The notes beneath the pieces were generated by a model that did no database searches, was not told the DNA's origin, and saw nothing but the letters and a program-made list of their open reading frames with translations. Of a DNA stretch of 64,000 bases, positions 12,404 to 42,724 are shown piece after piece. A program made the translations under genes and the position numbers. Location of the stretch: the NCBI GenBank assembly GCA_963775685.1, contig CAVZJV010000014.1:1472001-1536000 (forward strand), read 5' to 3'. The DNA is from Candidatus Bathyarchaeota archaeon. Its GTDB lineage: Archaea; Thermoproteota; Bathyarchaeia; Bathyarchaeales; Bathycorpusculaceae. Position 1 is the first letter of the stretch. Each line of letters begins with the position of its first letter.

Positions 12404-12543
12404 GAAGCGTTGTTCCAAGGCGAGACAGCTAATATCTCAGAAGTAGCTAAGTAAGAAAAGCGATTTGCGATTTAGTAGAATCAAGTTTTGCGTATTCTAC
12501 AGAATTTGAGGGTGCTAAAATCTTTAGAAAACGTAATTTTTAG
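12404..12543 (+). pseudogene. Relic C-terminus of the tRNA-Leu tyrosine integrase
   Basis: Translates EALFQGETANISEVAK*/ICDLVESSFAYSTEFEGAKIFRKRNF* versus intact EALFQGEIDYISKVAK..ICVLIEAGFEYVTEFEGLKFFRKRKT*; DNA gaagcgttgttccaaggcga vs gaagcattgttccaaggcga. Confidence 0.88.
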
Positions 12544-12583
12544 CAAAAGCGTCACCCTAACTGACCCTTATACGTATTGCTTA

Positions 12584-12620
12584 TAATGATGGAGGGATTC
12601 GCACCCTTTACAAGTGAAGA
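12584..12620. repeat. att-like junction J1 (decayed tRNA-Leu 3' end plus element arm)
   Basis: taatgatggagggattcgcaccc-tttacaagtgaaga, ~40 nt after the integrase relic. Confidence 0.6.
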
Positions 12621-12653
12621 CTTTGGTCTAAAGCATACTTTGAGAATTGACTA

Positions 12654-13784
12654 TTACATTTTTTTAAAGTCTTCTAATGCTTTCTTCAAATCCATTGCCG
12701 CATTAAAAGATAGATCATCACGGTCATATTCAATTCTTTTTAAACCCTTAAGATTTGAGGGTAGTTCTACTTTTCTTTCAACCAGCAAAACAACTTGCGT
12801 GTTATATTTTAGATAAGCCGCATTAATTTCTGAGGTCACATTTGAATTAAGGAGGTAGAGTCCGCTATACCTTCTTTCTTGTTCAGCAGCAGCGATGTTT
12901 ATTATTGCACAATCACAGTCCCTCATTAACCCAAACGTATTATCCGAGATTGGTACAGTTGTTTCTTCTTTGTCACCAACAGCATAGTCATAATGAAGAA
13001 ACTCTAGCATTTTTTTCACTTGGTCAGCTACCTTAGTGTTGCTATTTGATATGAAAACTCGGGGTTTTAGGCCTTCTTTTTGGGGTATACTGGGCATTTT
13101 TTCCATTTTTTCAGATGGTCTTGTTTCCGTCAATAGGTCTTCTGCCATACTTCCTCTAAGTGGAGCTTCAAAAGTCACCGGCGAACGAGCTAAACTTTCG
13201 ATCCTGTTCGAGTAGCGTTTATTCAATAGTTCATTTATAGGTAACAATTGAAGCTCAATGCCATTATCCATGGCTGTTATTTTTCCTTCAATGGTATCTT
13301 TATCAAAACTTAATGCTACAATTGTGCCCTTTTGTGCTCTTCCCTTTACTAGTACTTTGACAAAGTCTTGCACCTCAGCCAAGCCGGCATGATCGGATTG
13401 TATAATCAAAAGCGGTTGACCCCCGGCGGTAAACCCATTCACGCCCAAAGATGGGTCACCTGATTTGCCATTGAATCGTTTAATAACCCACTCTTCGAAG
13501 TTACGGGATGAAAATTTTCGCAGGCTTTTTTCATTGACTTTTCTCTTCTTAACGAAAACGAATGCAGACACAACTCCAACAACAGTTATCGCCGCTATGA
13601 TTCCACCAATGAGTAATAAATCAGGGGCGCTTCCTTGGTCTGCTGTTTCTGTTGGCGATGGCTGTAACGTAGACTTTGGTGTTGCTTTCGGTGTTACTGT
13701 TTGACAGTGTGCTATTTGGGAAATGACTATTGCTGAAAAAAGGAAAAAAGCAATAAAAATAACTGAGATTATTTTTTTATTCAT
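12654..13784 (-). CDS. Membrane-anchored protein with degenerate Mrr-like domain and C-terminal TIR-like (Cap12/Pycsar-type) domain
   Basis: Signal peptide, PT linker, TM plus KKRK; FEEWV...GVNG...EVQDF...KGTIVALSF (Mrr-like); RVFIS...DCDCAII...NVTSEI...ELPSNLKG..RIEY (TIR-like). Confidence 0.75.
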   Translation of the reverse strand: MNKKIISVIFIAFFLFSAIVISQIAHCQTVTPKATPKSTLQPSPTETADQGSAPDLLLIGGIIAAITVVGVVSAFVFVKKRKVNEKSLRKFSSRNFEEWVIKRFNGKSGDPSLGVNGFTAGGQPLLIIQSDHAGLAEVQDFVKVLVKGRAQKGTIVALSFDKDTIEGKITAMDNGIELQLLPINELLNKRYSNRIESLARSPVTFEAPLRGSMAEDLLTETRPSEKMEKMPSIPQKEGLKPRVFISNSNTKVADQVKKMLEFLHYDYAVGDKEETTVPISDNTFGLMRDCDCAIINIAAAEQERRYSGLYLLNSNVTSEINAAYLKYNTQVVLLVERKVELPSNLKGLKRIEYDRDDLSFNAAMDLKKALEDFKKM

Positions 13785-14069
13785 GTTTTAACATCCCTTG
13801 GCATGGCTAATGGCTATCTTCCGATCATAGGTAAATGCCTACGGTGAATAGGAAGTTATTGTATCATTGTCTTAAATAATTTGGGTAGGAATTTTTTGCC
13901 TCAATTTTTCATTGACCTTTTTCGTGTATAGGCAATAAATTCTGAAAGGTTAATGCAATATTTACAAAAGAAAGCCCTCTCTTAGGAGCATACCACCATA
14001 TCGAATAATTGAAAAAAGCAGAAAGCAACAAACTTTTAATCCAAGTCAAACCAATAAAAGCCGAAGCAA

Positions 14070-14291
14070 GTGGATAAAATGGACAGAAAATTAAAAACTA
14101 TACCCGAACCTCAAAAGGGAACCAAAACAGTTTTTGCATCAAAAACGTTGCCAGTAATAAAAAGCAAGGGAGGCAATACTGCCTATTTATGTGGCAATTG
14201 TGGAGCAAAAATAGGCCAAACAATAATCGAGGGAAAATTCAAGAATGTTGTGTTAAAGTGTCCAACATGCAATCTCTACAACGAAGTGTAG
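14070..14291 (+). CDS. Small zinc-ribbon protein
   Basis: YLCGNCG and KCPTCNLYNE. Confidence 0.65.
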   Translation: MDKMDRKLKTIPEPQKGTKTVFASKTLPVIKSKGGNTAYLCGNCGAKIGQTIIEGKFKNVVLKCPTCNLYNEV

Positions 14292-14596
14292 TTTAGGTCA
14301 CTGCAGAGACTAAATAGAGGCACCGAAAGGATTCCGTTATCGTTACGTCTTTATTGTTCCAACTTTTTGCTGGAATAAGGACGTGGGTATCTATTTTTTA
14401 TTCGTTGTTATTGCTAAGGCGTATTTACTCTGATTTGGTTTTATAATTTGTTTTTTTGTGGCTGTATTTTTATTTTGCGTTTTGTTAGTTCCAACTATTG
14501 TGGGACGCAGTTGCAGCAGCAACAACTGTATTTGCTGCTTCTCCAAAAATAGTTTCTGTTTATCGGTTGCTGTCTTGTCTCAAAAAATGTTTAGAT

Positions 14597-14620
14597 TGGC
14601 GCCCTGGGTTGGGATTTGAG
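14597..14620. repeat. Possible att-like junction J2
   Basis: tggcgccctgggttgggatttgag resembles a reversed tRNA 3' end; weak. Confidence 0.35.
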
Positions 14621-14896
14621 TCACTAGTTCTCAAAAGATAACTTTGTTATAGCTCTGATTTTTGTTTTTGTGGGGTGAGACGCGCCGGAAGTTCCTCATC
14701 CTATGATTGGTTGTGAGGGTGGCTTCTTTTTTGGTTTAGGCCGTTTTTCTGGTTGTGTTGGGATGGGGGGAGCGATTTTTTTGCTGGAAAGCTATGTTGG
14801 ATAGGTGGGATGAGGATGGGGTTGTATGTTTGGTTTCTATTTTGAGGGTTGTATGAGTTGTGTGTTGGGGTGGGGTTGTATTTGGTGCGTTGTTGT

Positions 14897-14956
14897 GGTT
14901 TTGAATTTGTCACCGAGTTTGTGGACACTAAAATCTTTATAAAACGCAAGCTTTAG
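14897..14956 (+). pseudogene. Second relic integrase C-terminus
   Basis: GFEFVTEFVDTKIFIKRKL* versus GFEYVTEFEGLKFFRKRKT* (12/19 identical). Confidence 0.8.
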
Positions 14957-15005: not shown

Positions 15006-15035
15006 ATAGTAGGGCACAAGGTGAGATTTGAACCC
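15006..15035. repeat. att-like junction J3
   Basis: atagtagggcacaaggtgagatttgaaccc is 23/30 identical, ungapped, to 42633-42662 (tRNA-Leu 3' end); ~50 nt after the integrase relic. Confidence 0.8.
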
Positions 15036-15197
15036 TTTATCCTGTAAAGATGTCGCTTGCATTTCCTTTTTTTAAACGGTTTGGCGCTTCAGTTTTTAAA
15101 TAAGGGCATGAATGCGATTTAGTTAGCAAATTTCAATCTGATTCGTTTAGATATAATATAATTTTTTTTCAATTCAATTAGCATTTTTAATACCAAT

Positions 15198-15440
15198 TTA
15201 AGTGCAGAATCGTAGCCATCCACAGTATTCTTTGCTTGAGTCTTTATCCGCATAAGTTCGCACCACAATTTCTTTTCCAATACCTTCATCAGTAAACTGA
15301 ATTGAACCTTCCTTAAGCCATATCAAAGCATCCACATACCCATGCTCCGAGTCTGAAAGCTCATCTACCATAGATGATTCTGCCTTCTGCCTGATCATTT
15401 CCTCAATCTTTTCTTTTAACACGCTCTCAACCTTGCCCAA
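15198..15440 (-). CDS. Hypothetical protein
   Basis: 80-aa ORF with GGTGA SD before TTG. Confidence 0.5.
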   Translation of the reverse strand: MGKVESVLKEKIEEMIRQKAESSMVDELSDSEHGYVDALIWLKEGSIQFTDEGIGKEIVVRTYADKDSSKEYCGWLRFCT

Positions 15441-15941: not shown

Positions 15942-16003
15942 TGCAGGATTGGGATTCAAACCCTTCTGTAAAGGAAGAAATCACCCACGTCAACCCCATT
16001 TTT
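15942..16003. repeat. att-like junction J4
   Basis: tgcaggattgggattcaaaccc (cf. tgcagggggtgggattcgaaccc) followed by aaggaagaaatcac...aaccccatttttt, shared with J5. Confidence 0.7.
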
Positions 16004-16008
16004 TAAAA

Positions 16009-17376
16009 CTAGACGAAAAAATAGCAAGGAAATGAAAAAATGTTAGAAGAAAAAATAGCAAAGCGCACCTTATGTGTTGATTCTCTTGATGAAGGAGCTT
16101 TCGATTTCAACCTTTTGAATATTAGGATAATCACCAACAAAACAACGACAATAACAAGTGCCACCACTATAATGATTGGTAGGTAGGCCGAAGAGTTAGA
16201 ATTGACTGGATTTGCGAATGCATAAACATTGCGAGCACCCGAGCCAATATAGACTACGCCGTTAGCAACGACAGGAGATGATTGAACTGCATGGTTGCGG
16301 TCGCTAATTGTGTAATTCCATAGTATGTCACCGCTTATAGCGTTTAAGACGTAAAGGTTGTCATCATTAGAAGCAATATACACAACTCCATTTGCAGCAG
16401 CAGGAGATGTCACTCCATTTACTGCACCAGGGGAGGTCTCGCTCAAGTTACCCAAAGATTGATTCCAAATTTTTTCACCATTATTAGTATTCAAAGCATA
16501 AACGCTGCCATCACCACTTGAGCCAACATATAAAACATCATCCAAAACAGCAGTAGGTTTCAAAAAAGAACCTAGACCAGTTTGTTTAAACAAACTGTTG
16601 CTCCATAACAATGATCCATTAACAGAGCTCAATGCGGAAACATTAGAACCAACACCTATGTACAACGTCTCGTCAACGAGGGTAGGAAACGCTGCAGAAT
16701 TGTTAGTGCTATAATCCCAAAGATTTTTGCCATTAGTTGCATTTAAGGCATAAACATCGCTATTAAATGTAAATATGGGAATAAAAACACTAGAAACTGC
16801 GAATACTACCCCATCTTGAACAATGGGCGACCCCACTCCACCTATAATATGGTGCTTCCAAACCTCTTCACCAGTTGACCCATTCAAAGCAACAAGGTTA
16901 CCGTCACTTAGGCATATATACACAATTCCATCAGCAACCGCTGGAGAAGAACTAACCGCGTCCCCAGCAGGATAGCTCCAAAGTTTAGCCCCGTTTGTAG
17001 CGTTGAAAGCATAAACATTACCATCAAAAGAACCTACATATACTACACCGCTGGCGACAGCTGGTGAAGAGCCTCTAACAGGAATAGAGTAGTTCCACAA
17101 CTTGTCTCCGTTTGCAGCGTTGAGAGCATAGAGGTTACCAGCATAGCTCACCTGGGTTCCCTTATAGATTACGTCTTCACATCCTACGTAGAGCACACCA
17201 TTGTCGATAGTTGGAGATGACCACACCCCATTGCTAGTTGCATATTTCCAAAGCAATGTAGCGCTAGGAGACAAACTATTATTCGCACCATTTGTCGCAG
17301 AAACTGGTTTAGAGATAATTAGGCTAGGCAAAGTCAGGGACATCGTAATAAGTAAGAACGCTAAGATTTTTCTCAT
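16009..17376 (-). CDS. Secreted PQQ-like beta-propeller repeat protein with C-terminal membrane anchor
   Basis: Repeated SSPAV..GVVYVGS.DG.VYALNA.TG..LW; signal peptide from MRKILAF (ATG 17376); TM plus basic tail. Confidence 0.9.
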   Translation of the reverse strand: MRKILAFLLITMSLTLPSLIISKPVSATNGANNSLSPSATLLWKYATSNGVWSSPTIDNGVLYVGCEDVIYKGTQVSYAGNLYALNAANGDKLWNYSIPVRGSSPAVASGVVYVGSFDGNVYAFNATNGAKLWSYPAGDAVSSSPAVADGIVYICLSDGNLVALNGSTGEEVWKHHIIGGVGSPIVQDGVVFAVSSVFIPIFTFNSDVYALNATNGKNLWDYSTNNSAAFPTLVDETLYIGVGSNVSALSSVNGSLLWSNSLFKQTGLGSFLKPTAVLDDVLYVGSSGDGSVYALNTNNGEKIWNQSLGNLSETSPGAVNGVTSPAAANGVVYIASNDDNLYVLNAISGDILWNYTISDRNHAVQSSPVVANGVVYIGSGARNVYAFANPVNSNSSAYLPIIIVVALVIVVVLLVIILIFKRLKSKAPSSRESTHKVRFAIFSSNIFSFPCYFFV

Positions 17377-17413
17377 AGTTACGTTTGGAATGATATAGAA
17401 TAAAAGTCTATTC

Positions 17414-17527
17414 GTAAAACTTTCTTGACTAAATTCTGGAGAGCGATGCCGTGACTTAGTCAAACTTTCTTGACTGATAAAAGTGTTGGATTCACCACAT
17501 CACTGGAAAATGCCAAAGTTCCTTGAC
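17414..17527. promoter_or_regulatory. Three GTCAAG-N4-CTTGAC-type palindromes upstream of the PQQ gene promoter
   Basis: gtaaaactttcttgac 17414, gtcaaactttcttgac 17459, gccaaagttccttgac 17512; the first abuts BRE/TATA on the minus strand. Confidence 0.65.
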
Positions 17528-17550
17528 TTGGCTTGTTTTGATGTTTTATG

Positions 17551-17646
17551 CAGGATAAAAAAGCTACACCCCCTGGCGGTTTAGGCAGCCGTGGCATCAA
17601 ACCCTCTTTGAATGGAGAAATCACTTTCGCATAACCCCATTTTTTT
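17551..17646. repeat. att-like junction J5
   Basis: caggata..acaccccctg..gtggcatcaaaccc..tggagaaatcac..aaccccatttttt; left part matches the integrase-tRNA spacer 42606-42621. Confidence 0.7.
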
Positions 17647-17670
17647 CTTCATTTTGATTTTGGCTTATAG

Positions 17671-19302
17671 TTACTTACTCTGACTCGCTTTTGCTCTTCT
17701 GCCTTTTATTATTACTTGAAGCGCAATCACAAATACTGTCACAACTGCTGCGGCAGCCACCAATCCATAGAGCACTTCAAGCCAGCTCAATTGATCCTGG
17801 GATCCATTATTTGAAGCCGTTGGACTTGGAGAAACAGTCATAGTGAACATGATTGATATTTGATGTGAACTAAAGGGGGTAATGCACCATACATAATAGT
17901 TGTTGCTGTCCTGTGTGTAGTCTTGATTTGAAGTTGGTTGACCATCAATGAATATTATTGGTTTCGTGCCATATGTTACCGAGTTTTTTGGAATAGTAAC
18001 GTTACCAAAACCTGCTGTTCCGCTTTGACCCGTTACAGTGAACGATAATGTTGTTGTAGATTCAGATTGGTTTGTTGCCAGTACCACATTTGACATTTGT
18101 GAACTGGTTATGTTTCCATGGATAGTTAGTTCAATCGTTGAACCATTATCTGTCATCGCTGGTACAGTTATTGATGAAGGAGATGGCAATGGAGTAGGAC
18201 TTGGCGTTGGAGTTGCAGTTTGAGTAGGTGTTGTTGAAGGAGTTGGAGTTGGGTTTTTTGGTGTTGGAGTCGGAGTTGGAGTGGGTGTTGGGAAAGATGA
18301 AGAGGTGTTAAATGGTGAAATGAGGGGGTAATTGTCGAAGTAGACAGTATTTCCATCCCAGTTAGCTACGAGCGGATATGGCGTGTTTCCAATTCCTGTG
18401 TGATCAATTTCTGTTCCCGAATAATCGCTCCAGTAGTTGCCTTCTTTACCGTTATCCCAGTAATTTGCATATCCAGCCCAATCGCTATTTCTTCCAAAAA
18501 GCAAGGCTTGAAAAGTGTTTTGGATGAAATTGTTATGGTAAAAAGTATTGCTTGAAGGCGGTTCAATCGCAAGACCATATTGATTATATGCGAAAGTGTT
18601 GCCGACAACGGTGTTGTTTGAACAATCGTTGTTGAGTTGTAGTCCATAATTGTATGTACTGTTCCCAAAGTAGTTACCAATAATTGTATTGTTTCCGCTT
18701 GCATCAGACAGTAATGCCCCAAAACCATTGTTTACAATGTTGTTGTCTATAATGCTGCAGCCGCTACCGCCCTCAACATATACGCCTGTCCCTCCGCAAG
18801 TCGTTATATTATTCCCTACGATGGTGTTTTCTGAACCGTATTGTAGGAAAATGCCGTTTCCGTATTGAATGGCACTTATGGTGTTGCTTGTGATGTTAAT
18901 GTAGCTTGAAAAATACTCAGCTCTTATTCCGTCTGGTTCAGTTACAGAATATGGGTATCCTTTGTTGTTGCTTACGGTGAAATTTTCGATGGAAACATAG
19001 CTCGCATTAATATAAATGATGTTTTCGGTTGCGTTGTTTGCATCTATGAATGTTGATTCCTGATTTTCTCCGATAAGGTTTATGGATTTGTTTATAACAA
19101 GAGTTTCAAAGTAGGTGCCACTTTTCACGAGTATTGTATCGCCTTGAGAGGCGTTGTCTATAGCGGCTTGAATGGTTGGGTAATCGTTTGGAACAACAAT
19201 CGTTTTGGATTGAGCTTTCACAGTAGCTGGGGGTAGTACAACTAAAGAGGCTAAAAACAACGCAACAAGAACCAGAGCAAAACTCTTGCTTAATCTATTC
19301 AT
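17671..19302 (-). CDS. Secreted NosD/parallel beta-helix protein with PT linker and membrane anchor
   Basis: IVVPNDYPTIQAAID, Asn-rich beta-helix repeats, NTFYHNNF, WDNGKEGNYWSDY, C-terminal TM. Confidence 0.9.
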   Translation of the reverse strand: MNRLSKSFALVLVALFLASLVVLPPATVKAQSKTIVVPNDYPTIQAAIDNASQGDTILVKSGTYFETLVINKSINLIGENQESTFIDANNATENIIYINASYVSIENFTVSNNKGYPYSVTEPDGIRAEYFSSYINITSNTISAIQYGNGIFLQYGSENTIVGNNITTCGGTGVYVEGGSGCSIIDNNIVNNGFGALLSDASGNNTIIGNYFGNSTYNYGLQLNNDCSNNTVVGNTFAYNQYGLAIEPPSSNTFYHNNFIQNTFQALLFGRNSDWAGYANYWDNGKEGNYWSDYSGTEIDHTGIGNTPYPLVANWDGNTVYFDNYPLISPFNTSSSFPTPTPTPTPTPKNPTPTPSTTPTQTATPTPSPTPLPSPSSITVPAMTDNGSTIELTIHGNITSSQMSNVVLATNQSESTTTLSFTVTGQSGTAGFGNVTIPKNSVTYGTKPIIFIDGQPTSNQDYTQDSNNYYVWCITPFSSHQISIMFTMTVSPSPTASNNGSQDQLSWLEVLYGLVAAAAVVTVFVIALQVIIKGRRAKASQSK

Positions 19303-19341: not shown

Positions 19342-19381
19342 GTAAAACTCTCTTGACTGAGAATCGTCAAGTTTTCTTGAC
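19342..19381. promoter_or_regulatory. Two GTCAAG-N4-CTTGAC palindromes upstream of the NosD gene
   Basis: gtaaaactctcttgac 19342 and perfect-arm gtcaagttttcttgac 19366. Confidence 0.7.
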
Positions 19382-19404
19382 TAAGCTGGCTTTGATGTTT
19401 TATA

Positions 19405-19503
19405 CAGGATATAGAATCTACACCCCCTGACGTTTTGAGCAGCAGTGGTATCGAACCCCACAGGCAGTGGAGACTATTTCAACATCACCCGCAAACCCCC
19501 TTT
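19405..19503. repeat. att-like junction J6
   Basis: caggata..acaccccctg..agtggtatcgaacccc..agtggaga..atcac..aaaccccctttc; homologous to J5. Confidence 0.7.
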
Positions 19504-19633
19504 CTATTGCGCTTGTCATTTCTTTATTACCATTCATCGTGGTGTTTGGACCCCATCTAGTTATTCGCAAAGCTTAAGAATAAACAATCAACAAACTATC
19601 ATTCAGTTCGATTATCAAGGCAGGAAATTTTAA

Positions 19634-20197: not shown

Positions 20198-20514
20198 TAA
20201 GTCAGAAACAGATTATAAGAAAGACATAGTCAATTCAATTCAATCTTTCCTTGGCACATGGAAGGAAGAAAAGAAAAAGTGACCTTAACTTTGGAATAAG
20301 CAGCTTTTGGCTAAATGGACTCAATAACGAAAAAGCATTGAAACTCGTTAGGGAGGATGTTGAGGTGGGTTTAGCTCAATACGAGACAAGAATAAAACTA
20401 ATTGACGTAGCGATTGAATTTAAGAATAGTAGTGAAGGCGATTTCCAAATTGAGTTTAAAATTACGTACTTAACGAAGACTGTGAACAAAATTCATCACA
20501 CCTATTTTTCTTAA
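20185..20514 (+). pseudogene. GPW/gp25-like protein, frameshifted near 20270
   Basis: MDGIV..DIVNSIQSFLGTWKEE / RKSDLNFG...VREDVEVGLAQYETRIKLIDVAI fits the gp25 pattern I..SI..L.T..GER...FG...AL..EPRI. Confidence 0.55.
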
Positions 20515-20564
20515 AAGTCCTCCTCTAATGAAGCTGACATCAAACGTTTTTAATAATTAATTTA

Positions 20565-21582: not shown

Positions 21583-21609
21583 TAAATTAATTAATTGAGT
21601 TGTTGGGGG

Positions 21610-21660
21610 TTATAGATGAGGCTACTGGGATTTGAACACCTTTTAAAGTGGAGATATCGC
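21610..21660. repeat. att-like junction J7 (probable left end of provirus-like element)
   Basis: tgggatttgaacacc-ttttaaagtggagatatc; same two-part consensus as J1/J4/J5/J6. Confidence 0.6.
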
Positions 21661-21742
21661 CACTCTCTTAGTTTCTTCGCAGCTTCCTTCTCTTTTTTCT
21701 TTCCAGAAACAGTTATTCTAAACTCTTCAAGGAGGAACAATT

Positions 21743-34317: not shown

Positions 34318-34391
34318 TGTTGTTGTTACCTCTTGCTTTTGATATAATACTCAGAGTGGGGCGATACTTAATACGATGCTTTAGAACGAAC

Positions 34392-34819
34392 TGTTCTTCT
34401 TTTAGTACACGCCCGTGACAGCGCCATTATCTATCGATTAGTTTCTTTCTTGAGGCTTCTTTCTGAAAACAACAAAAGAGCCGAAACTATCCCAACTACT
34501 ATAGCGGCGACAGCAAAGAGAATTGAAACTATATTGCCGTTTGCTGAAGATTGAGTGGGTGCTGTTGTAGGCAAGGGCGTCATTGTAGAATTAGGATTTG
34601 AGGTAGGTTGAGGGTTTGGGGGACCTTGCGAAGCATCTTGGGGCAAAAAACTTACGGCTCCTGCCAGCAAGAAGGCTAATGCGATTGCAAGAATGGGCGC
34701 GAACAGCATTTTCTTTCGGAGCAGGCTCATAATTTCAACCTTACCTACGATACTTCATGAAAACATGTAGTCGGTTATTTAATGCTATATTTTATTGAAG
34801 GTGTTCTAATTTTCGAACA
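34392..34819. promoter_or_regulatory. TGTTC-N8-GAACA palindromes at 34392 and 34802
   Basis: tgttcttcttttagtaca and tgttctaattttcgaaca in intergenic regions; further copies at 35322 (N9), 39124, 39145. Confidence 0.55.
34431..34730 (-). CDS. Small two-TM protein with PT linker
   Basis: Hydrophobic ends flanking a Pro/Thr/Ser loop. Confidence 0.65.
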   Translation of the reverse strand: MSLLRKKMLFAPILAIALAFLLAGAVSFLPQDASQGPPNPQPTSNPNSTMTPLPTTAPTQSSANGNIVSILFAVAAIVVGIVSALLLFSERSLKKETNR

Positions 34820-34889
34820 GGCTACATGAGTAACTGTTGAGGGTAGCTCTTAAATTATTGTTGCGCTTTGTTTTGGCATGTGAAAGGTT

Positions 34890-35312
34890 TTGGTTGACGA
34901 TGATTCCAAAGAAGTGCTAAGAGGAACTACTCTTGAAGTTTACCGTTTTCTGTTAAAAAGCAACAAGCCTGTTGGAACGCGGGAACTTCAAAGAGCTCTA
35001 AATCTTAGTAGTTCCTCGGTGGCCACTTACCATCTATCTAAACTTGAAGATGCTGGGCTTCTAAGAAAGGAGCCTGGCGGTTTCACCGTTAGCAAATTCC
35101 TTTTGGAAAACAGCATCAAAATAAATCGTTTTCTGGTTCCAAGATACTTTTTTTATGCGATATTTGCCGTAGCAATTCTCATAATAGAATTGACAATCAT
35201 GAAGCCTGCTGTTCTTTACCGTGAATACATTTTTTCGTTAGTTGCAACCATGATACTCGCCTTTTTCTTTTGTTATGAGACACTAAAAACTTGGCGACGG
35301 GGCAATTTGTAG
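34890..35312 (+). CDS. Membrane-anchored wHTH transcriptional regulator
   Basis: LRGTTLEVYRFLL..PVGTRELQRALNLSSSSVATYHLSKLE plus two C-terminal TM helices. Confidence 0.85.
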   Translation: MVDDDSKEVLRGTTLEVYRFLLKSNKPVGTRELQRALNLSSSSVATYHLSKLEDAGLLRKEPGGFTVSKFLLENSIKINRFLVPRYFFYAIFAVAILIIELTIMKPAVLYREYIFSLVATMILAFFFCYETLKTWRRGNL

Positions 35313-35375
35313 CAATCGATGTGTTCTAAAGCTTAGAGCTAAATACACGCCAAACTCTCCATATTTGAGGCTGAA

Positions 35376-36353
35376 ATGATGATGATCCTTTCAAAGAAGG
35401 CACTTCTGATAATGTTTCTGTTCGTAGTTTTGTTTGTTCCATTGGGACAACTTTCAACAGTGCATTCTGACCCATTACCACAGACTTTAGAGTCTAAGGC
35501 GTTTGCCTGCTTAACTGATGTTTATCCTCTAAACTTAACCCATTATAATGTGACGGCTGATCCCGTCTATACGTTATCCTCAGCGTCAGACACCTCCACA
35601 ACTCAAGCAGTCAATTACAAACTCAACTCACCCGACAGCAACCTTGTAGCAAACTTCCTGTTCAAAGATGGCAAATTGTATTCACTCACCCTAAGCGTCG
35701 TGAACGGTTCAGTAGTCACCTCACAGTCCTATGACAACTTGACCGATGCATCCCGAGACCTTCTGCTTAAGTATCAGGCGTTTAGTGGTGCGGACTCGAC
35801 AGACCTTATCTGGTTGCTAAACCACTTTGACGAGAGTAAAAACATCCCAGTAACTTTAGGCAATGTGAGTGTGAGTCTTAGGGTTTCTCATTTAGGGTTA
35901 CCTAACACGGGAATCGTGACAACAACCTTCAACTGGATTTATTTACTGAATGTCGTGGATGACACCGCCGTTACTTTAACCTTAGCCAACAACACATTCG
36001 GCGGTCTTTTCGACTCACGCCAACTCTACAAGATAGGCAGTGGCGAAGCAATAACCGCAGCAACAAACTACATCGCGAGTCATACATTTACTTGTTCTAA
36101 CGGAGCTCAAGTAAACGGTATCGACGTTGACAAAGACCGCTCAGTTGCGAAATTTTTCGCTTTAGCCCAAAACGGGACCCTCCAAGCCTGCTGGAACGTA
36201 ACTTTGAGCCTCAACCATACATATCAAGGAGGCGTTGATGCCCTTCAAATGGATGTTTGGGCGAATTCAGGTGAAGTTATTGGCTTCCGTAACCAATCAG
36301 TCAACTCGTTACAGGTTAACGACTCAAACATGAATCCTTCAGTAGTAGGGTGA
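35376..36353 (+). CDS. Secreted hypothetical protein
   Basis: Signal peptide; C-terminal W.V.L...V..WANSGEV PepSY-like ending. Confidence 0.7.
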   Translation: MMMILSKKALLIMFLFVVLFVPLGQLSTVHSDPLPQTLESKAFACLTDVYPLNLTHYNVTADPVYTLSSASDTSTTQAVNYKLNSPDSNLVANFLFKDGKLYSLTLSVVNGSVVTSQSYDNLTDASRDLLLKYQAFSGADSTDLIWLLNHFDESKNIPVTLGNVSVSLRVSHLGLPNTGIVTTTFNWIYLLNVVDDTAVTLTLANNTFGGLFDSRQLYKIGSGEAITAATNYIASHTFTCSNGAQVNGIDVDKDRSVAKFFALAQNGTLQACWNVTLSLNHTYQGGVDALQMDVWANSGEVIGFRNQSVNSLQVNDSNMNPSVVG

Positions 36354-36420
36354 CCATAACCGCGATTGCCGCCCTTACGATAGCAGTTGGAATAATTCTC
36401 ATACGAAGGCACAGAAAACA

Positions 36421-36951
36421 TTGAACAGAAAACTTAAGCTGTTATCAGGTGCTGTTATCTTAATCTTCTTTTTTTTGGTTTTATCACTCTTTTTAGTATG
36501 GACTAAACCAACAGCACCTTCATCCCTTCAACCTAAAGGGAACGTCTATTTGCATTTTCCAAGTGATTATCAGGGAGGCGCAGAAACCAAGGCTTACTTG
36601 ATTGATTCACAACTTTATTATGGAACTTATAATCAAAGCTTTACCCGCTCAGGCGCCACAGGCGCCTATTCTATTAACAATGGCGATGCGTGCGTTATCA
36701 TAAATGGAACAGTTAGAAACGACTACTCCAAAGATTACTATTTCAGCATAACAGCAAACGTTTACAATTCTACAAACCAAAAGATCGGACCAATTCTTAC
36801 CGCAGACTCGCCACAGCCAGGTTTCACCATTACTAAAGTGAGCAGCAATTCAACAGGAACATTTGAAATACAAATCCCATACGACAGAAAAGACATCGTA
36901 AATTACGACCTTCTTCTCGCATTCGAACCCACCGAAAACCCGCCCACATAA
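36421..36951 (+). CDS. Membrane-anchored hypothetical protein
   Basis: N-terminal TM; GDACVIINGTVRNDY. Confidence 0.7.
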   Translation: MNRKLKLLSGAVILIFFFLVLSLFLVWTKPTAPSSLQPKGNVYLHFPSDYQGGAETKAYLIDSQLYYGTYNQSFTRSGATGAYSINNGDACVIINGTVRNDYSKDYYFSITANVYNSTNQKIGPILTADSPQPGFTITKVSSNSTGTFEIQIPYDRKDIVNYDLLLAFEPTENPPT

Positions 36952-37019
36952 GGAGCCCCTCGAAAATGAAAAGCCAAAATGTTCAAGCAACTGACGCAAT
37001 CCTTGACAAGACTTATTGT

Positions 37020-37035
37020 GTCAAGAAATTTTTAC
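37020..37035. promoter_or_regulatory. GTCAAG-type palindrome before promoter of 37085 gene
   Basis: gtcaagaaatttttac followed by TATA-like tttatttaaa; half site cttgac at 37002. Confidence 0.6.
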
Positions 37036-37084
37036 AAACAGACATTTATTTAAAAAATTGTATTCCAGCTATAGGTGATTGTAG

Positions 37085-37957
37085 ATGAGAGAGAAACGAT
37101 TTCTAGCAGTTTTAACAGTTTTGATGTTGCTGATAACCGGAGGAATTGCCTTTATGATGGCAGAGGCGCAAGCGCAATCTTCAGAAAGTGTATACATTAA
37201 CGCAGACGGGTCAGTGACAGGGACCAATAATATCCAACGAAACCGCAATGTTTACACTTTAATGGATAACATTTCAGGCAACATTCAAGTTCAGAGAAGC
37301 AATATAGTATTGGACGGAGCAGGGTATTCCCTTAACCAAGGTGGAATAGACCTAACCAACGGGATAGGGCAAGACCCAACACATTCCACCATTAGCAATG
37401 TAACAATCGAGAACTTCTATATTGAAAATGGAGGCATAGGCACTAATGGCGGTGGTAATTACACGTTCTACAATGACTACATTCCCTCCATCCAGTTTTT
37501 GGGAGACTGTATTAACAACAACATAACTTTCTGTACCGTTTCAGCAATTGCATTCGATTATGGAGGAAACGCCACATTAACCGAAAATAACCTTGGTAAC
37601 ATTTTAGTGTGGTTAAGTTTCGGTGGAATTGCTGACAGAAACTATTGAAGTGACTATTTAACTAAGTACCCTAATGCTACAGAAATTGATGATTCTGGGA
37701 TAGGCAACCAACCATATGTCTATGCTACTGTACAGAATTACACGCAAACAATCTATTGCCAAGATAATCATCCGCTAATGAAGCCAGTAACAATTCCACT
37801 GATGGGTTCAAATCCTTTAGTCAATCCAAGTGCCACTCCTCCTATTCCAGAGTTTCAACCATGGACAGTTTTGTTGCTGTTTGGCATAATAGTTACAACT
37901 GCTGGTTTGTTGGTTTACTTCAAAAAACGCCAACCGAAATCGGGAGGTAAAATATGA
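37085..37957 (+). pseudogene. Beta-helix surface protein interrupted by TGA at a conserved Trp (37646)
   Basis: RNY*SDYLTKYPNATEIDDSGIG; frame continues to PIPEFQP, TM, FKKR, stop at 37957. Confidence 0.8.
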
Positions 37958-39082
37958 GAAAGAATGTTGTATTGCTGGCTGTTCTCGTCGTCTTGGCAAT
38001 TTCATGTTTGGCTGTATATTTACCCCGTTAAGGCTGAATCTAAAACAATCACTGTACCAGACGATTTCCACACTATTCAAAAAGCCATCAACGCTGCCGA
38101 CGTAGGAGACACAATATTCGTTAAGAAGGGCAGTTATTTTGAAAATCCAGTGGTCAACAAATCGGTTTCATTGGTTGGAGAAGATAGGGATGCAACTGTA
38201 ATTGATGTGACAGCTGGTTTGAAGGTAGAAAGCGATAATGTAACCATAACAGGCTTGACCATATTTGACGGTTGGCAGGGGATCACGGTATCTGCAAACA
38301 ACTCTAAAATTTCGAGAAACAAGATAACGAATTGTCAATATGGCATAGTATTACTCAATTCGCAGGATAGCACCATTAGCGAGAATTTTCTTCAATCAAT
38401 CGGACTTTCGGCTGCCATCCAACTGAGCTACTCAAACAAGAATATGATTAAGAACAACTATATTGAATCCTGTACAGAAGGCATTCAGCTTAGAGCAGGT
38501 AGTTCTAATAACGTGGTTATAGAAAATACCGTAACAAATTGCCAAGACGTAGCTATCCGACTATTAGCAGAATACTCCCCATCGAAATGGTATAACCCAG
38601 ACGGAAACACAATAATGCGGAATAACATCTCAAATTCAGGTTGTGGAACATCCGTTTATGGTTCAAGCAATAACATCATATCAAATAATGACTATGTTAA
38701 CAACACCATACAGTTTTCTGCTAATGAAGACTATTGTCTTACATGGGGCGGTAGTCATTCAACTAATTCTTTTGACCGAAACTATTGGAGTAACTATAAC
38801 GGGAAAGACTCTAATAGAGATGGCATCGGTGACACCCCATTCATTATAGACTCCTACAATAAAGATAACAATCCTGTTATGTCCTCAATTCCAGTAACTT
38901 TGCCTAATTATGGTCCAACTTCCTCTCCAATCCCAACCATCAATACGGGTCCTCATATGCCAGAAACAGAGTCGTTCCCAACTTCATCCGTAATAGTTAT
39001 TGCTTTGATTGTTATAGCGGTTGTTATTGCCTCTTTGTTGCTTTATAGAAGGCATCGAAAAACCGCTAACCCACTGAATTAA
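37954..39082 (+). pseudogene. NosD/beta-helix surface protein, frameshift in signal peptide (C-run near 38023)
   Basis: MRKNVVLLAVLVVLAISCLAVYLP / VKAESKTITVPDDFHTIQKAINAA; NYWSNY..DGIGDTP; TM plus RRHRK. Confidence 0.8.
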
Positions 39083-39237
39083 GACTTTTTCTCAATTAAA
39101 TGTATAATCACCCAATCGTTTACTGTTCTTTTTGCGGAACAGATTGTTCTCTAAGGAGAGCTAAAAGCAACTCTGTAGTATACTATATTTTGACCAGAAA
39201 TAAAGAAAGCTCTGTAACTAAGGGAAATGATGACTAA

Positions 39238-39687
39238 ATGAAAACCAAAGTAAAAGTTTTAGCTATAATAATTTCAGCAATAGTCATAGCAACAATTGGA
39301 TTTACTGTTGAATTTAGGCCTATACCAACCCAAACACCAGCTACTTCTTTAATAAAAACAACACCAACGCCTATAACAAGTAATGTAACAGTCTCAGGCT
39401 TAATTATTAGCCACGGCTTAACTGTCCCACCTACAGAAGTACAGTTCATAAATACAGAAACCCATGAAGTGTACAAAGCACCAATAAGTCAGCCACAATA
39501 TTCCTATGCTATATCTCTTCCAGTTAATCAAACGTATGGCATAGAAGGTGACTGGAACGGCAGGACATTTAACGCTACTGGAATACCGATGGGGGCCATA
39601 ACAATGAGATGTGACAATGGTTTACCAATTCTAAATCTTGACAATGCCAAGATTACTATGACGCAAAATCTTGTTGTTGGGCAGTAA
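39238..39687 (+). CDS. Membrane-anchored hypothetical protein
   Basis: N-terminal TM, PT linker. Confidence 0.65.
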   Translation: MKTKVKVLAIIISAIVIATIGFTVEFRPIPTQTPATSLIKTTPTPITSNVTVSGLIISHGLTVPPTEVQFINTETHEVYKAPISQPQYSYAISLPVNQTYGIEGDWNGRTFNATGIPMGAITMRCDNGLPILNLDNAKITMTQNLVVGQ

Positions 39688-39786
39688 GAGTGAGTAGACC
39701 TTTTCCCAAGCAAGTGTACCGTGCTTTCTGACAAATAAATTCTTTTAAGCAAGGCAAAACAAACAAAGATATCTAACAACAATCGA

Positions 39787-40053
39787 TTGAGGCTAATACA
39801 AATGGATAAAGAAACGAAAAAGATGAGTGCGGGTCTTTTATCGGTCATTGGATGCATATTATTTGCATTTTCAATTTACATTTACATTGATGACCCTCAC
39901 CGCTGGCTTTTAGCGTGGGTTTCAAGTTTATCTTTTTTGGTTATCGGCATAGTCTTAATCATTCTTGCAGTAGTCATTCAAAAAATGAAGATAACGGAAA
40001 CAAAACAGAAACCTTTGGCATTCACCCGCTTATCCGAACGGATTCTAGTATAA
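39787..40053 (+). CDS. Small two-TM protein
   Basis: Two hydrophobic helices. Confidence 0.5.
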   Translation: MRLIQMDKETKKMSAGLLSVIGCILFAFSIYIYIDDPHRWLLAWVSSLSFLVIGIVLIILAVVIQKMKITETKQKPLAFTRLSERILV

Positions 40054-40256
40054 CAAGCTGCTCGCAGGAATTCTTTCTCCAAAGGAATGCGTCTCAAGTA
40101 CAGTCAAGGCCTAATTAAAGTGACAAAGTAATCTCAGGAGTGGACTAGAAAGAAGTATTCGCCGCTTTAAAATTGACCTGCCCTTTGCCACATGATCAGG
40201 AGATATTAGAAACAAACTCTTTGGCAAAAATAGAACCCAAGCGACAACTGATTTGG

Positions 40257-40676
40257 TTAACGGTATTGTTTGGTCTTCTTGTATTCATCGTATTTGTAGA
40301 GGGTTTCGGAAATTTGGCTGCGTATAAATTGCTCTGGACTGCGGAAGGGCGAACCCATTTCTTTTAGGGCTTCATCGAGCTCATCATACTGCTCACGAGA
40401 GACTTCTAGGAATTCGTTATCGTTTTTCAATCGTTCAAGCCGGTAGCGTATGGCATCACGGACAAAGTCCTCTTTGTTGGTGAAGCCTACGTCTTTGTTT
40501 TCTTCAATGAAGTTTTCCACTTTGGCAATGACTTCAGATGGAAGAATAACCGACTGCTCCAAGAGAGCGTTTATGGCGTCCTGGTAAGTTTGCATTTTGT
40601 TAGTCTCAGCGGTGAGCTCTCCCAGGAGACCAGTTAGTTTGCTATGGATGTCGTCTGAGATTTTTATCGCTTTCAT
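40257..40676 (-). CDS. Tandem RHH-domain regulator (putative repressor)
   Basis: MKAIKISDDIHSKL..TYQDAI..LL; second RHH GFTNKEDFVRDAIR. Confidence 0.75.
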   Translation of the reverse strand: MKAIKISDDIHSKLTGLLGELTAETNKMQTYQDAINALLEQSVILPSEVIAKVENFIEENKDVGFTNKEDFVRDAIRYRLERLKNDNEFLEVSREQYDELDEALKEMGSPFRSPEQFIRSQISETLYKYDEYKKTKQYR

Positions 40677-40728
40677 GAGGTATTTCTCCTGTGAATAGAA
40701 GTATGATTAGTAGGATTAGATTTATAAG

Positions 40729-40761
40729 GTTACCCATAGTAACGGAGTTAACTAAGTTAAC
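40729..40761. promoter_or_regulatory. Tandem GTTA-N7-TAAC operators between divergent RHH genes
   Basis: gttacccatagtaac (40729) and gttaactaagttaac (40747) directly after tttataa. Confidence 0.65.
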
Positions 40762-40780
40762 CAGAGGGGAATTGTGAAAA

Positions 40781-40999
40781 ATGAAAGCAAAAGTCGCCTT
40801 CACCATAGATCAAGAGGTCCTAAAAGAAATAGACGCCTTAAGGGACCTAGCAACCCGAAGCGCATTCGCCAATGAAATCCTCAAACAAGGACTCAAAGCA
40901 TACAAGGCAACGCATAAGCGACCCAAGGCGCCATTTCCAGCCGTGACCTTTGATACGGAAGAGGAAACAGCGTTAACGCCGTCGAAGGTGAAACCCTGA
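40781..40999 (+). CDS. RHH/CopG protein
   Basis: KVAFTIDQEVLKEID..RSAFANEIL. Confidence 0.8.
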   Translation: MKAKVAFTIDQEVLKEIDALRDLATRSAFANEILKQGLKAYKATHKRPKAPFPAVTFDTEEETALTPSKVKP

Positions 41000-41235
41000 T
41001 GGAGCCTCGCAAGGTTTGCCCCTTAGCCGCAGCTCACCCGCAACAGGAAAACAGCAATTGCCTTGGCGAAGCATGCGCATGCTACGTGAAAATGCAAAAA
41101 AACCGCTTTATCCAAACAGGCAACACCAGTATTGTTGATCCAGAGAGTTTCTATCGCTATGTCGGGTGCGGACTGGTGGCGCATATTCCCTGGGAACTTG
41201 TCAACTTCGAAAAGATTCCAGAACCAAACAAGTAA
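40999..41235 (+). CDS. Cys-rich hypothetical protein
   Basis: CPL...CLGEACACY...CGLV. Confidence 0.6.
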   Translation: MEPRKVCPLAAAHPQQENSNCLGEACACYVKMQKNRFIQTGNTSIVDPESFYRYVGCGLVAHIPWELVNFEKIPEPNK

Positions 41236-41279
41236 ACTAACCAAGCACAAGAACTGCACAAAGAAAGGGGTGGGAGGGA

Positions 41280-42569
41280 ATGGTTGGATCTTCAGTTGGG
41301 GTTAAGTCTTCTGACGTTTTTGGCACCTTCTCCAGTTCTCCCGCTTGTGGATCCACGCTTCAAGAAAGCATCCCCCTAAACCCACCTTGCCCTCAATGCG
41401 GATCTAGAAAACTCTGGAGAGACGCCAAACGCTACACCGTTTTTGGGGATGAAATTCAAAGATGGCTTTGCCGAGAATGCGGCCTTAGATTCTCAGATCC
41501 AAATGATGTCAAGAAAAGCTGGAGCACCCAGGAGAAAGCAGCCCGATCGGAATTGAACAATGAAATAAAAATGACCTCTGACTTAGTATCTAATCGCCAA
41601 ATATGCGTCACGGAGACGAAAAACTTGGTAGCAGAACAAAAGACAACTGAAGTTCTGCGGAGAAACCAAACTGGCGAGGTCAAAGGAAAAATCATCGAAT
41701 ACGCCTGGTGGCTAAAAAAAGACGGAAAAAGCGAATCAACAATCCTGGGCAGAACAAAGATCCTAAGCGTACTCACAAAACGAGGAGCAAACCTCTACGA
41801 TCCCGAAAGCATCAAAGAAGCCATAGCCAAACAACCCTGGAGCAGCGGCAGAAAAAACAACGCTTGCGACGCCTACTCATCCTTCCTAAGAATGGTAGGC
41901 GGCACCTGGGAAGCACCAGTATACCAAACAATCCGAAAACTTCCCTTCATCCCCAAAGAAACGGAAATCGACCAGCTCATCGCAGGAAGCAGCAAACGCA
42001 TGGCCACTTTCCTACAAACGCTAAAAGAAACAGGCTCAAGATGCGGAGAAATCTGGCGACTAAAATGGGACGACATAGACTTCGAAAGCAAAGTCGTAAA
42101 CATCACCCCCGAAAAAAACAGCAACCCACGAGTAACCCACCTAAGCGACAAACTCCTCGACATGCTCAGACAACAGCCAAAGAACTACGGTGAATACGTC
42201 TTTTCCCGCCCAAACATGAGAGTAGATAACCACGCGGTCACATTCCAGCAACAACGCAAACGAATCGCAAAGAAAATCGGCAACCCAAGAATACTAAAAA
42301 TCCACTTCCACACTCTAAGACACTTCAAAGGAACCATGCTCTATCACAAGACCAAAGACCTGCTCTACGTAATGCAAGCCTTAGGCCACAAAAACATCAA
42401 AAACACGCTCCTCTACATCCAACTCGAAGAAGCATTGTTCCAAGGCGAAATAGACTACATCTCAAAAGTCGCAAAGACTCCAGGAGAAATCTGCGTCCTA
42501 ATCGAAGCAGGCTTTGAATACGTCACTGAATTTGAAGGCCTCAAGTTCTTCAGGAAAAGGAAGACCTAA
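41280..42569 (+). CDS. Tyrosine recombinase/integrase with N-terminal zinc ribbon
   Basis: CPQCGS/CRECG; ETGSRCGE (R), PEK (K), HTLRH, LGH, LLY catalytic set; ends 67 nt from tRNA-Leu 3' end. Confidence 0.95.
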   Translation: MVGSSVGVKSSDVFGTFSSSPACGSTLQESIPLNPPCPQCGSRKLWRDAKRYTVFGDEIQRWLCRECGLRFSDPNDVKKSWSTQEKAARSELNNEIKMTSDLVSNRQICVTETKNLVAEQKTTEVLRRNQTGEVKGKIIEYAWWLKKDGKSESTILGRTKILSVLTKRGANLYDPESIKEAIAKQPWSSGRKNNACDAYSSFLRMVGGTWEAPVYQTIRKLPFIPKETEIDQLIAGSSKRMATFLQTLKETGSRCGEIWRLKWDDIDFESKVVNITPEKNSNPRVTHLSDKLLDMLRQQPKNYGEYVFSRPNMRVDNHAVTFQQQRKRIAKKIGNPRILKIHFHTLRHFKGTMLYHKTKDLLYVMQALGHKNIKNTLLYIQLEEALFQGEIDYISKVAKTPGEICVLIEAGFEYVTEFEGLKFFRKRKT

Positions 42570-42636
42570 AACATGAAAAATCAAGAAAAAACGAGTATAC
42601 ATCGCCAGGATAAACCCCCTGTATGTTTTAACATAG

Positions 42637-42724
42637 TGGTGCAGGGGGTGGGATTCGAACCCACGAACGCCTACGCGATAGGGTCCTAAGCCCTACTCCG
42701 TTGACCTGGCTTGGAGACCCCTGC
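42637..42724 (-). tRNA. tRNA-Leu(TAG)
   Basis: GCAGGGG acceptor stem, TAGGG-CTTAGGA-CCCTA anticodon arm, long variable arm, GTTCGAATC, encoded CCA. Confidence 0.96.

Follow-up and report, generated by a model that had tools for sequence, protein, structure and literature searches.

A tRNA-Leu-anchored array of small, mostly single-gene units separated by putative att junctions in a Bathyarchaeia genome

The closest described parallels to the locus treated here, an island of accessory genes beside the tRNA-Leu(UAG) gene of a Candidatus Bathyarchaeota archaeon (Bathyarchaeia), are the accretion islands of bacteria. The streptococcal integrative and conjugative, integrative and mobilizable, and cis-mobilizable elements (ICEs, IMEs and CIMEs) of the ICESt1 family enter tRNA or other genes at the 3' end, and decayed elements keep their attachment (att) sites and lose the integrase; a newcomer enters attR, which gives tandems that can show complex excision patterns (PMC5704250). 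In the tycheposon islands of Prochlorococcus, tyrosine-recombinase elements target tRNAs and later ones push earlier ones inward, and the islands contain scattered partial tRNAs, fragmented integrases and cargo modules (bioRxiv 10.1101/2020.12.28.424599). Arrays of tyrosine-recombinase elements are known in archaea too, with 57% of the thaumarchaeal integrations found in tRNA genes (Krupovic et al., PMC6563490), and integrons have been reported in Archaea (10.1101/2022.02.06.479319). For the Bathyarchaeia, a limited literature search met no description of arrays of many integrase-free, kilobase-scale units: a paper on a Bathy-6 genome describes genomic islands together with a provirus and, in the portions available, no att arrays, and a survey of Bathyarchaeia viruses mentions integrases merely in passing.

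The window analyzed, i.e. the whole stretch of 64,000 nucleotides (C14:1472001-1536000), comes from a genome of 3.06 Mb in 14 contigs (G000). For comparison, 120 genomes of the genus were sampled; G001-G121 denote related genomes and L-numbers denote fetched loci. An original prediction, made from the sequence alone, had described about 30 kb next to tRNA-Leu(UAG) as a tandem array cut by about seven hybrid att junctions. With corrections, this observation of a junction array was confirmed. We put the probability at roughly two in three that the island was formed by site-specific recombination at the 3' end of tRNA-Leu(UAG), which would have built a tandem array whose junctions later served as breakpoints, likely through an integrase acting in trans. 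The predicted interpretation is right in kind and has precedents, its model being essentially the published one for tycheposon islands. What is new is a junction family of the Bathyarchaeia, together with dense arrays of integrase-free, kilobase-scale units whose presence and order vary by species, with breaks in or near the junctions.

Like ICE/CIME accretion, the locus shows integration at a tRNA 3' end, integrase-free att-flanked units and a tandem array. It differs in its archaeal host, in that no conjugation genes were seen, in a median spacing of 1.5 kb and in having at least seven junctions at one tRNA; moreover, the elements are here virus-like or cryptic. Compared with tycheposons, the host belongs to the other domain of life, the integrase is of a different family with an N-terminal zinc ribbon, the right-arm motif is specific to the family, and no replication module was recognized in the window by Pfam or PHROGs. 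The archaeal arrays of PMC6563490 consist of few full-size elements, whereas many integrase-free units on the kilobase scale are found here, in Bathyarchaeia. With integrons the locus shares small, mostly single-gene and recombinase-free units, a conserved site, an adjoining tyrosine recombinase and an order that varies among relatives, but it departs from them in its non-IntI integrase, the lack of an attC hairpin, mixed orientation and a tRNA-derived, double-stranded site.

The features of the array are given below from left to right. E values of junctions are the genome-wide values obtained with the external profile described further on, and bases kept are counted against the 26-nt end of the tRNA.

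11152..11940, minus strand: eIF2-alpha gene (PF07541 and S1 domains), the conserved left flank of the island
12404..12545, plus strand: C-terminal relic of an integrase before J1, residues ~384-428 (tblastn E 8e-7 for 12404-12534, residues 384-427)
12591..12653, plus strand: J1, decayed tRNA-Leu core and the TIR unit's own right arm (E 3.6; arm common to seven genomes)
12654..13784, minus strand: gene of the TIR unit (unit ~1.3 kb), a membrane protein with a C-terminal TIR-like domain
13926..13950, plus strand: J1b, a heavily decayed putative core closing the TIR unit at the right, assigned by position (14 of 26 bases)
14070..14291, plus strand: 73-aa zinc-ribbon open reading frame (ORF) of the Zn unit (~13995-14607), with weak zinc-ribbon Pfam matches only
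14607..14625, plus strand: J2, decayed tRNA-Leu core (19 of 26 bases), left flank orthologous to the core flank in G010 and the tRNA flank in G001
14897..14955, plus strand: second C-terminal integrase relic, before J3 (weak; tblastn E 0.24 for 14897-14950)
15018..15085, plus strand: J3, core and right arm (E 2e-5)
15198..15440, minus strand: 80-aa ORF of the ORF80 unit (15048-15946), unknown family, no match in the Pfam scan
15947..16006, plus strand: J4, core and right arm (E 2.3e-3), left flank shared with G012 and both G111 copies
16009..17463, minus strand: PQQ-like beta-propeller with signal peptide and C-terminal membrane anchor (PF13360, E 5e-46; an internal ATG is likely the true start)
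17520..17650, plus strand: J5, 'J5-type' left arm, core and right arm (E 2.4e-8; 81% identical to J6 over 86 nt)
17671..19302, minus strand: NosD/beta-helix surface protein with Pro/Thr linker and membrane anchor (PF05048, PF13229)
19373..19510, plus strand: J6, 'J5-type' left arm, core and insertion-bearing right arm (E 2.1e-3)
21622..21700, plus strand: J7, tRNA-Pro-like core and left arm of a provirus (E 3.2e-5)
41280..42569, plus strand: intact 429-aa tyrosine integrase with an N-terminal four-Cys zinc ribbon (PF00589, E 1e-24; IS1-type zinc-domain match)
42570..42636, plus strand: left-arm spacer (CGCCAGGATAAACCCCCTG...), a similar motif occurring 3' of paralogous integrases
42637-42724, minus strand: tRNA-Leu(UAG) (ARAGORN and Rfam), its 3' 26 nt being the att core

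All seven sites of the prediction (J1-J7) carry a core resembling a tRNA T-arm, and in most of them a similar right arm follows. A junction comprises the 3' 26 nt of the tRNA, 8 variable bases and then GGAGAnnTCACCCGCA..CCCC-T6, and copies elsewhere in the genome give the consensus tRNA last 26 nt (..GAACCC), 8 variable bases, (G)TGGAGAwaTCACCCGCA, 3-4 bases, and CCCC with a T run. The right arm after the variable bases begins with an imperfect palindrome, GGAGAnnTCACC, a putative protein-binding site, and continues with CGCA..CCCC-T6. The core motif TGGGATTyGAACCC had been assigned to the 3' end of a tRNA-Leu, which claims too much: the motif is that of a generic T-arm, and the core of J7 fits tRNA-Pro(GGG) better. 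For many tRNA-targeting integrases, crossover reportedly takes place in the T-loop region.

A first profile, made from the seven junctions of the window, found further copies in the genome at E 9e-7 to 0.04. Another, external profile was built from 15 junctions outside the window, i.e. seven from other loci of this genome and eight from four related species, and these resemble one another far more than the decayed copies of the window. It supports five of the seven listed junctions (J3-J7), at E values from 2.4e-8 to 2.3e-3, with matches exclusively on the plus strand. Shuffled sequence, the check named in the original prediction, scored far below these: the five real junctions reach 18.8-34.7 bits, while none out of 200 dinucleotide shuffles of window positions 12000-43000 attained 12 bits (maximum 10.5). 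J1 and J2 are rescued by orthology, as the left flank of J2 and the right arm of J1 are the two sides of well-kept att sites elsewhere. In G010, a well-kept copy of the tRNA-Leu 3' end, which is the orthologue of J1 and retains 24 of the 26 core bases, has the left flank of J2 (Zn unit) on one side and the right arm of J1 with the TIR gene on the other. Of the seven junctions claimed, J3-J7 are thereby backed by the external profile and J1 and J2 by orthology only, and J1b had been missed; at its position a core or the tRNA itself is found in G010, G121, G102 and G080.

Several lines connect the junctions to tRNA genes. Five out of seven matches of the window-derived profile outside the window are situated 2.3-27.5 kb on the 3' side of a minus-strand tRNA, in the matching orientation, the tRNAs being tRNA-Leu(CAG), tRNA-Ala(UGC) and tRNA-Cys, and no tRNA was detected near the remaining two. 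The same junction family occurs 3' of tRNA-Leu(CAG), tRNA-Ala and tRNA-Cys both in this genome and in relatives. At C14:800402-800717, a fresh hybrid junction (C14:800655), i.e. a tRNA-Leu end and then the arm, follows an integrase relic. Perfect 26-nt repeats of the tRNA end (ending GAACCC) flank a 14-kb element bearing an integrase in G017 and a 7.3-kb segment without integrase in G002. Furthermore, the full core-plus-arm was present on three of 24 IMG/VR loci fetched by motif, one of which adjoins an integrase with 40% identity. An Rfam scan of 11-52 kb found two tRNAs only, and the junctions match no known RNA family. The tRNA links, the integrase relics, the fresh repeats and the blank Rfam result together identify the junctions as att remnants, of the attL type and hybrid, left by elements of a family that targets tRNA genes. 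Their tRNA-like half is chromosomal, and their arm was brought in by the arriving element.

Short motifs taken alone are unconvincing as evidence without the joint profile (AAACTTTCTTGACT with 15 matches versus 13.8 expected, GGAGAAATCAC with 28 versus 18). The right arm, with hairpins resembling those of an anticodon arm, was also considered as the remains of another tRNA and this was rejected, the acceptor strands being unpaired by inspection and neither ARAGORN nor Rfam calling a tRNA there. Nor could a source tRNA be assigned by similarity to each decayed core: J7 alone is clear (tRNA-Pro), while J1-J6 score alike against several tRNAs.

The 3' end of tRNA-Leu(UAG) faces the intact integrase across a gap of 67 nt. 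The protein has its Arg in GSRCGEI (starting at residue 252), followed by HTLRH (344), LGHKN (368) and LLY (377), and its relatives are almost entirely sequences from Bathyarchaeota/Bathyarchaeia. Seven full-length paralogues are encoded in this genome, besides partial copies and several C-terminal relics, and several of the paralogues adjoin tRNA-Leu(CAG), tRNA-Pro(GGG) or tRNA-Gly. Where a closely related integrase is encoded in another genome, only 40285-42725 of the window is shared. Of the C-terminal relics predicted before J1 and J3, the first is real, and the second is weak by itself and backed by G012. The first recurs before the TIR unit in G121; the second is 72% identical to the first over 64 nt and near-identical to the relic preceding a junction of G012 (Ja), where the match at the corresponding position is clearer (E 2e-11). 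Their spacing, claimed to be similar, had to be corrected to 48 nt from integrase stop to core at J1, 67 nt at J3 and 80 nt at attR. An element of the SSV type, in which att lies inside the integrase gene and the gene is split upon integration (PMC7253208), was rejected: next to attR the ORF of the integrase is uninterrupted, and the core is found outside the gene, at least 67 nt past the stop codon. No intact attL for the intact integrase was found in the window, where the search with spacer and tRNA end gave 12-nt matches at chance level (e.g. inside an ORF at 36921).

The size of the units is the part that goes beyond textbook accretion, as they are far smaller than ordinary integrated elements. 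In a survey of G000 and 71 Bathyarchaeia loci (3.5 Mb), counting junctions with an arm at E 0.01, we found 64 junctions, of which 29 pairs were neighbors on the same strand within 6 kb. Their median spacing was 1480 nt (quartiles 929-1911), with 25 out of 29 at most 2.5 kb apart, and mostly one dominant ORF was found per unit. In L065, four junctions fall within 2.5 kb, and the three intervening segments contain one ORF of at least 100 aa each.

Species differ by the presence or absence of whole units. The eIF2-alpha gene is syntenic with tRNA-Leu(UAG) in G001, G002, G003, G010 and G012, so that, including G000, the two ends lie on one contig and in the same relative orientation in six genomes. 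The interval from the eIF2-alpha flank to the tRNA measures 11.6 kb in G001, 9.6 in G002, 7.4 in G003, 13.4 in G010, 29.3 in G012 and 30.7 in G000; each interval holds junctions of the same family, e.g. six in G012 and four in G001, and the cargo varies widely between species. A PRPP-synthase-like gene, a ribulose-phosphate epimerase/transketolase fusion, transketolase-C and transaldolase are found in G002 (L002 3071-10413) and G010 (L004 9047-12391), this pentose-phosphate cluster being situated in G002 between the perfect 26-nt tRNA-end repeats, without integrase. In this genome, tblastn gave no match at E 1e-10 to epimerase/transketolase, transketolase-C or transaldolase.

That differences between strains would break at the junctions was another check named in the original prediction, and differences between species do so in or next to them in three comparisons, i.e. 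G001 against G010, the window against G012, and unit order. First, the Zn unit of G001 runs into the intact tRNA; in G010 this flank leads instead to a core (24/26), the J1 arm, the 1.3-kb TIR unit and then the tRNA. Second, J3 of the window corresponds to two junctions of G012: its left half (relic and spacer) is nearly identical to that of Ja, and its right half (arm and ORF80 unit) is that of another G012 junction, Jx. G012 therefore has a 1.65-kb unit of two ORFs that the window lacks, the switch falling between core and arm. Third, the TIR or Zn unit was matched in 63 of the 120 genus genomes, and among the fetched loci the order is TIR-Zn in the window, G106, G103 and G117 and Zn-TIR in G010, G102 and G039. 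The TIR unit abuts the intact tRNA in G010 and G121, and the Zn unit does so in G001 and G117. A core forms the left end of the TIR unit in seven out of seven aligned genomes, with at least four different left neighbors. The ORF80 unit was found in 27 places in 26 genomes (a count from the search listing), and at each of the seven further loci examined a junction adjoined it on the left; G111 has two copies, 94.7% identical, in two arrays.

The window and G012 share the Zn unit, the second integrase relic, J3, ORF80 and J4, while the content from J4 to the tRNA is specific to each species. A shared distal stretch and a species-specific tRNA side fit growth at the tRNA end. Of the proposal that repeated integration into one tRNA pushed older units leftward, the att remnants and the growth by repeated integration at tRNA-Leu(UAG) are supported, and the strict age order is not. 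Against an age-ordered array speak core decay without a gradient (17, 14, 19, 19, 19, 19, 19 and 17 of 26 bases identical to the tRNA from J1 to J7, with J1b in second place), TIR and Zn units occurring in both orders, the tRNA-Pro-like core of J7, a junction that belongs to a mosaic provirus fragment, and the absence of an intact attL.

The proposed mechanism can be outlined as follows. Elements of a Bathyarchaeia family would carry a zinc-ribbon tyrosine integrase beside attP, and attP would hold a copy of the last 26 nt of the tRNA, so that integration would rebuild the tRNA gene. At each integration the previous tRNA end would become fused to the right arm of the newcomer as an internal junction, and repetition would give a tandem array, most units of which are now 0.4-2.2 kb long, with one gene and no integrase. 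The junctions would have stayed breakpoints after their formation, whole units being present or absent between species and two of them occurring in both orders. The likeliest agent of these exchanges would be an integrase of the family acting in trans on att-flanked units, as with CIMEs, and homologous recombination between the ~60-bp junction repeats probably contributes too. Movement of units by integrases in trans is plausible, and such site-specific recombination would explain the exact insertion of an integrase-free unit at the tRNA, the re-ordering and the kilobase-scale spacing.

A bolder form of this proposal sees in the array a cassette platform of the Bathyarchaeia: integrase-free units of ~1 kb with a double-stranded site of ~60 bp (tRNA T-arm core and GGAGAnnTCACC arm) would be excised and re-inserted, at the tRNA and at internal junctions, by zinc-ribbon integrases encoded elsewhere in the genome. 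We advance it tentatively, as a possibility that falls well short of even odds.

A number of observations weigh against the proposed mechanism. No public sequencing run was listed for positions 12400-22000 in which excised circles might be seen. With the external profile J1 remained below significance (E 3.6) and J2 was unmatched in the genome-wide search, and since the 15 external junctions were first located by the window-derived profile, the two profiles are not fully independent. The arm of the TIR unit is without the GGAGAnnTCACC motif. The breakpoints do not fall at one fixed position: for J3 the break is between core and arm (core/8 variable bases); copies of the ORF80 unit share sequence through the right-hand core, the 8 'variable' bases and the GGAGAnnTCACCCG motif as far as TCACCCG, and start after the left-hand motif; and the TIR unit breaks at the core, with its own arm on its left. 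Homologous recombination would account for such a scatter at least as readily as a single, fixed crossover of the site-specific kind. For the orthologous pair of J4, the right arm is ~66% identical, against 81% in the flanks (a count from the sequences); the arm being kept no better than its flanks, old junctions appear to decay freely. Finally, the window has no fresh core, identity to the tRNA being 54-73% throughout.

We therefore treat homologous recombination between these repeats of the junctions as a serious alternative or contributor. In its strongest version the origin of the island is the same, but the junctions are now dead relics and the units are leftovers of deletion, changes being due to homologous recombination of the 50-60-bp repeats with no integrase acting in trans. 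Besides the scattered breakpoints, the decay of old junctions about as fast as their flanks and the stale cores, the integrase relics fit this account, as they imply that full elements did decay at the locus. It meets difficulty in the integrase-free 1.3-kb TIR unit, which lies between the 24/26 core and the tRNA in G010 and abuts the tRNA in G121, where random deletion would need to end exactly at the tRNA 3' end. Nor can TIR-Zn and Zn-TIR come from deletion between direct repeats alone, and the spacing clusters at ~0.5-2 kb, mostly with one dominant ORF per unit. We regard the account without a trans-acting integrase as rather unlikely.

That the junction motif is a regulatory or terminator sequence, or a repeat resembling miniature inverted-repeat transposable elements, placed between accessory genes and only incidentally similar to a tRNA, is very improbable: the right arm does end in an oligo-T run, the usual terminator signal in archaea, and J5 and J6 are situated upstream of two surface-protein genes, amid AAACTTTCTTGACT repeats, but in fresh copies the 26-nt tRNA end is exact, J1, J3 and the C14:800655 junction each follow an integrase relic, the junctions lie 3' of tRNA genes in one orientation, species differ by a whole gene plus junction and not by the 60-bp motif alone, and short motifs alone are little enriched over shuffles. 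A true integron, with an IntI-type integrase, promoterless cassettes and a folded attC, is already refuted on integron-defining features, in spite of the small, mostly single-gene units with a conserved site between them and a weak NCBIfam similarity to integron integrases, for the integrase scores 56.2 bits with TIGR02249 (cutoff 265) and 29.4 with NF011946 (cutoff 435), no attC-like hairpin was found in six junctions folded as single-stranded DNA (z -1.12 to +0.95 versus shuffles), genes lie in mixed orientation (TIR, ORF80, PQQ and NosD on the minus strand, the Zn ORF and the ORF at 19634 on the plus strand), and the site is tRNA-derived. The label 'integron-like' given to the island hence describes its architecture, i.e. 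small, mostly single-gene, integrase-free units with a conserved site, and not the features by which integrons are defined.

As to the gene content, the island had been said to hold defense and surface genes. Three surface-type proteins are indeed present, while defense comes down to a single weak TIR match (PF10137 at 25.2 bits, cutoff 24.7; PADLOC TIR effector, E 8e-4). The Zn ORF, together with ~75 nt upstream, shows 80-90% DNA identity across many genomes of the genus, compared with 73-77% for the eIF2-alpha flank, and it usually sits directly before an att core, the spot where the integrase would be; one guess is that it is an accessory factor of recombination. Before J5 and J6, CAGGATA and ACCCCCTG had been matched to the integrase-tRNA spacer. 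Both motifs are present, but they are 12-13 nt apart as against 2 nt in that spacer, and the left arm is a distinct one. The J5-type junction consists of ACACCCCCTG, ~9 nt and GCAGCCGTTGCATCGAACCC, and is found in three species beside unrelated genes; its left arm also occurs at C14:2173240 (2173213-2173269), in G002 (L002 ~3990-4096) and in G012 (L005 ~13150-13275), and no good match to it was found among the tRNA 3' ends of this genome. The upstream region of the PQQ-propeller gene has three copies of the repeat AAACTTTCTTGACT, and that of the NosD-like gene has two (17414-17528 and 19345-19382), with none seen before the integrase; the copies may have a regulatory role or be binding sites of the arm type.

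Between J7 and the tRNA, the last 21 kb are of a different character. The features that remain to be listed, the first two of which are situated left of J7, are the following.

20251..20514, plus strand: gp25-like baseplate fragment (PF04965, E 4e-7)
20547..21601, minus strand: IS5-family insertion sequence abutting J7 (DDE transposase; NCBIfam IS5)
21743..30535, plus strand: virus-like module with ParB-like protein, tail tube, tail completion and 795-aa tail protein (Pfam, PHROGs)
31352..41250, strand unassigned: regulatory/accessory module with helix-turn-helix and PIN proteins and a second NosD-like protein (Pfam)

The 21-kb part is best called an incomplete or mosaic provirus remnant, with an intact integrase and no intact attL. 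The virus-like module is 80-96% identical at the amino acid level to C14:4316-6851 and C14:581537-586270, and the regulatory/accessory module is homologous to the right half of a provirus at tRNA-Pro(GGG) (tblastx 70-98% to C14:28974-40462). The mosaic structure is seen in that 22.2-24.8 kb and 31.4-41.6 kb match the tRNA-Pro provirus, and 24.7-29.5 kb has 90-96% protein identity to the tail module at C14:581537-586270. J7 points the same way, its core scoring 17 against tRNA-Pro(GGG) and 13 against the next-best tRNAs, with tRNA-Leu(UAG) outside the top four, and its arm being 75% identical, across 53 nt, to the arm at attL of the tRNA-Pro(GGG) provirus. A complete tailed provirus (Caudoviricetes) was rejected, only tail tube, tail completion, tail protein and the gp25 fragment being recognized; no capsid, portal or terminase was recognized by Pfam or PHROGs in 19.6-30.5 kb, where unannotated ORFs such as 22544-23497 could hide a capsid.

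The provirus at tRNA-Pro(GGG) measures 38.6 kb (C14:2966-41552) and has a 23-nt attL repeat; a second, divergent integrase (C14:41636-42919) is found across the same tRNA. The duplicated tail block comprises 4.7 kb (24747-29477), its second copy being situated in an apparent larger provirus near tRNA-Asn (C14:604840). In many genomes of the genus the IS5-family element has full-length copies of 70-83% identity, and a single genome often carries several. On the other side of tRNA-Leu(UAG), the distance to tRNA-Thr(GGU) is 8.1 kb here as against ~120 nt in several Bathyarchaeia loci (e.g. L018, L024 and L016). The insert (42725-50814) is placed between the 5' ends of the two tRNAs and contains two very large ORFs (929 and 1407 aa) without Pfam or PADLOC match, as well as a 261-aa SNase-like protein.

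Bathyarchaeia are abundant and lack genetic tools, we know of no pure culture, and the exchange of accessory genes among them is largely unknown. The locus and its counterparts define a family of tRNA-targeting integrases, the ~60-bp junction that is left behind, and a hotspot at which single genes differ between species, the genes concerned including those of surface proteins, that of a protein with a TIR domain and the transketolase/transaldolase cluster of relatives. If units do not move in trans, this would be a clear archaeal case of accretion-and-decay islands as in streptococci and Prochlorococcus. If they do, the array would be a functional analogue of integrons, with an independent origin in att sites of the phage type; some of the turnover of accessory genes in the class (surface, TIR and pentose-phosphate genes) would thereby be explained, and the system would offer a candidate integration tool for Bathyarchaeia.

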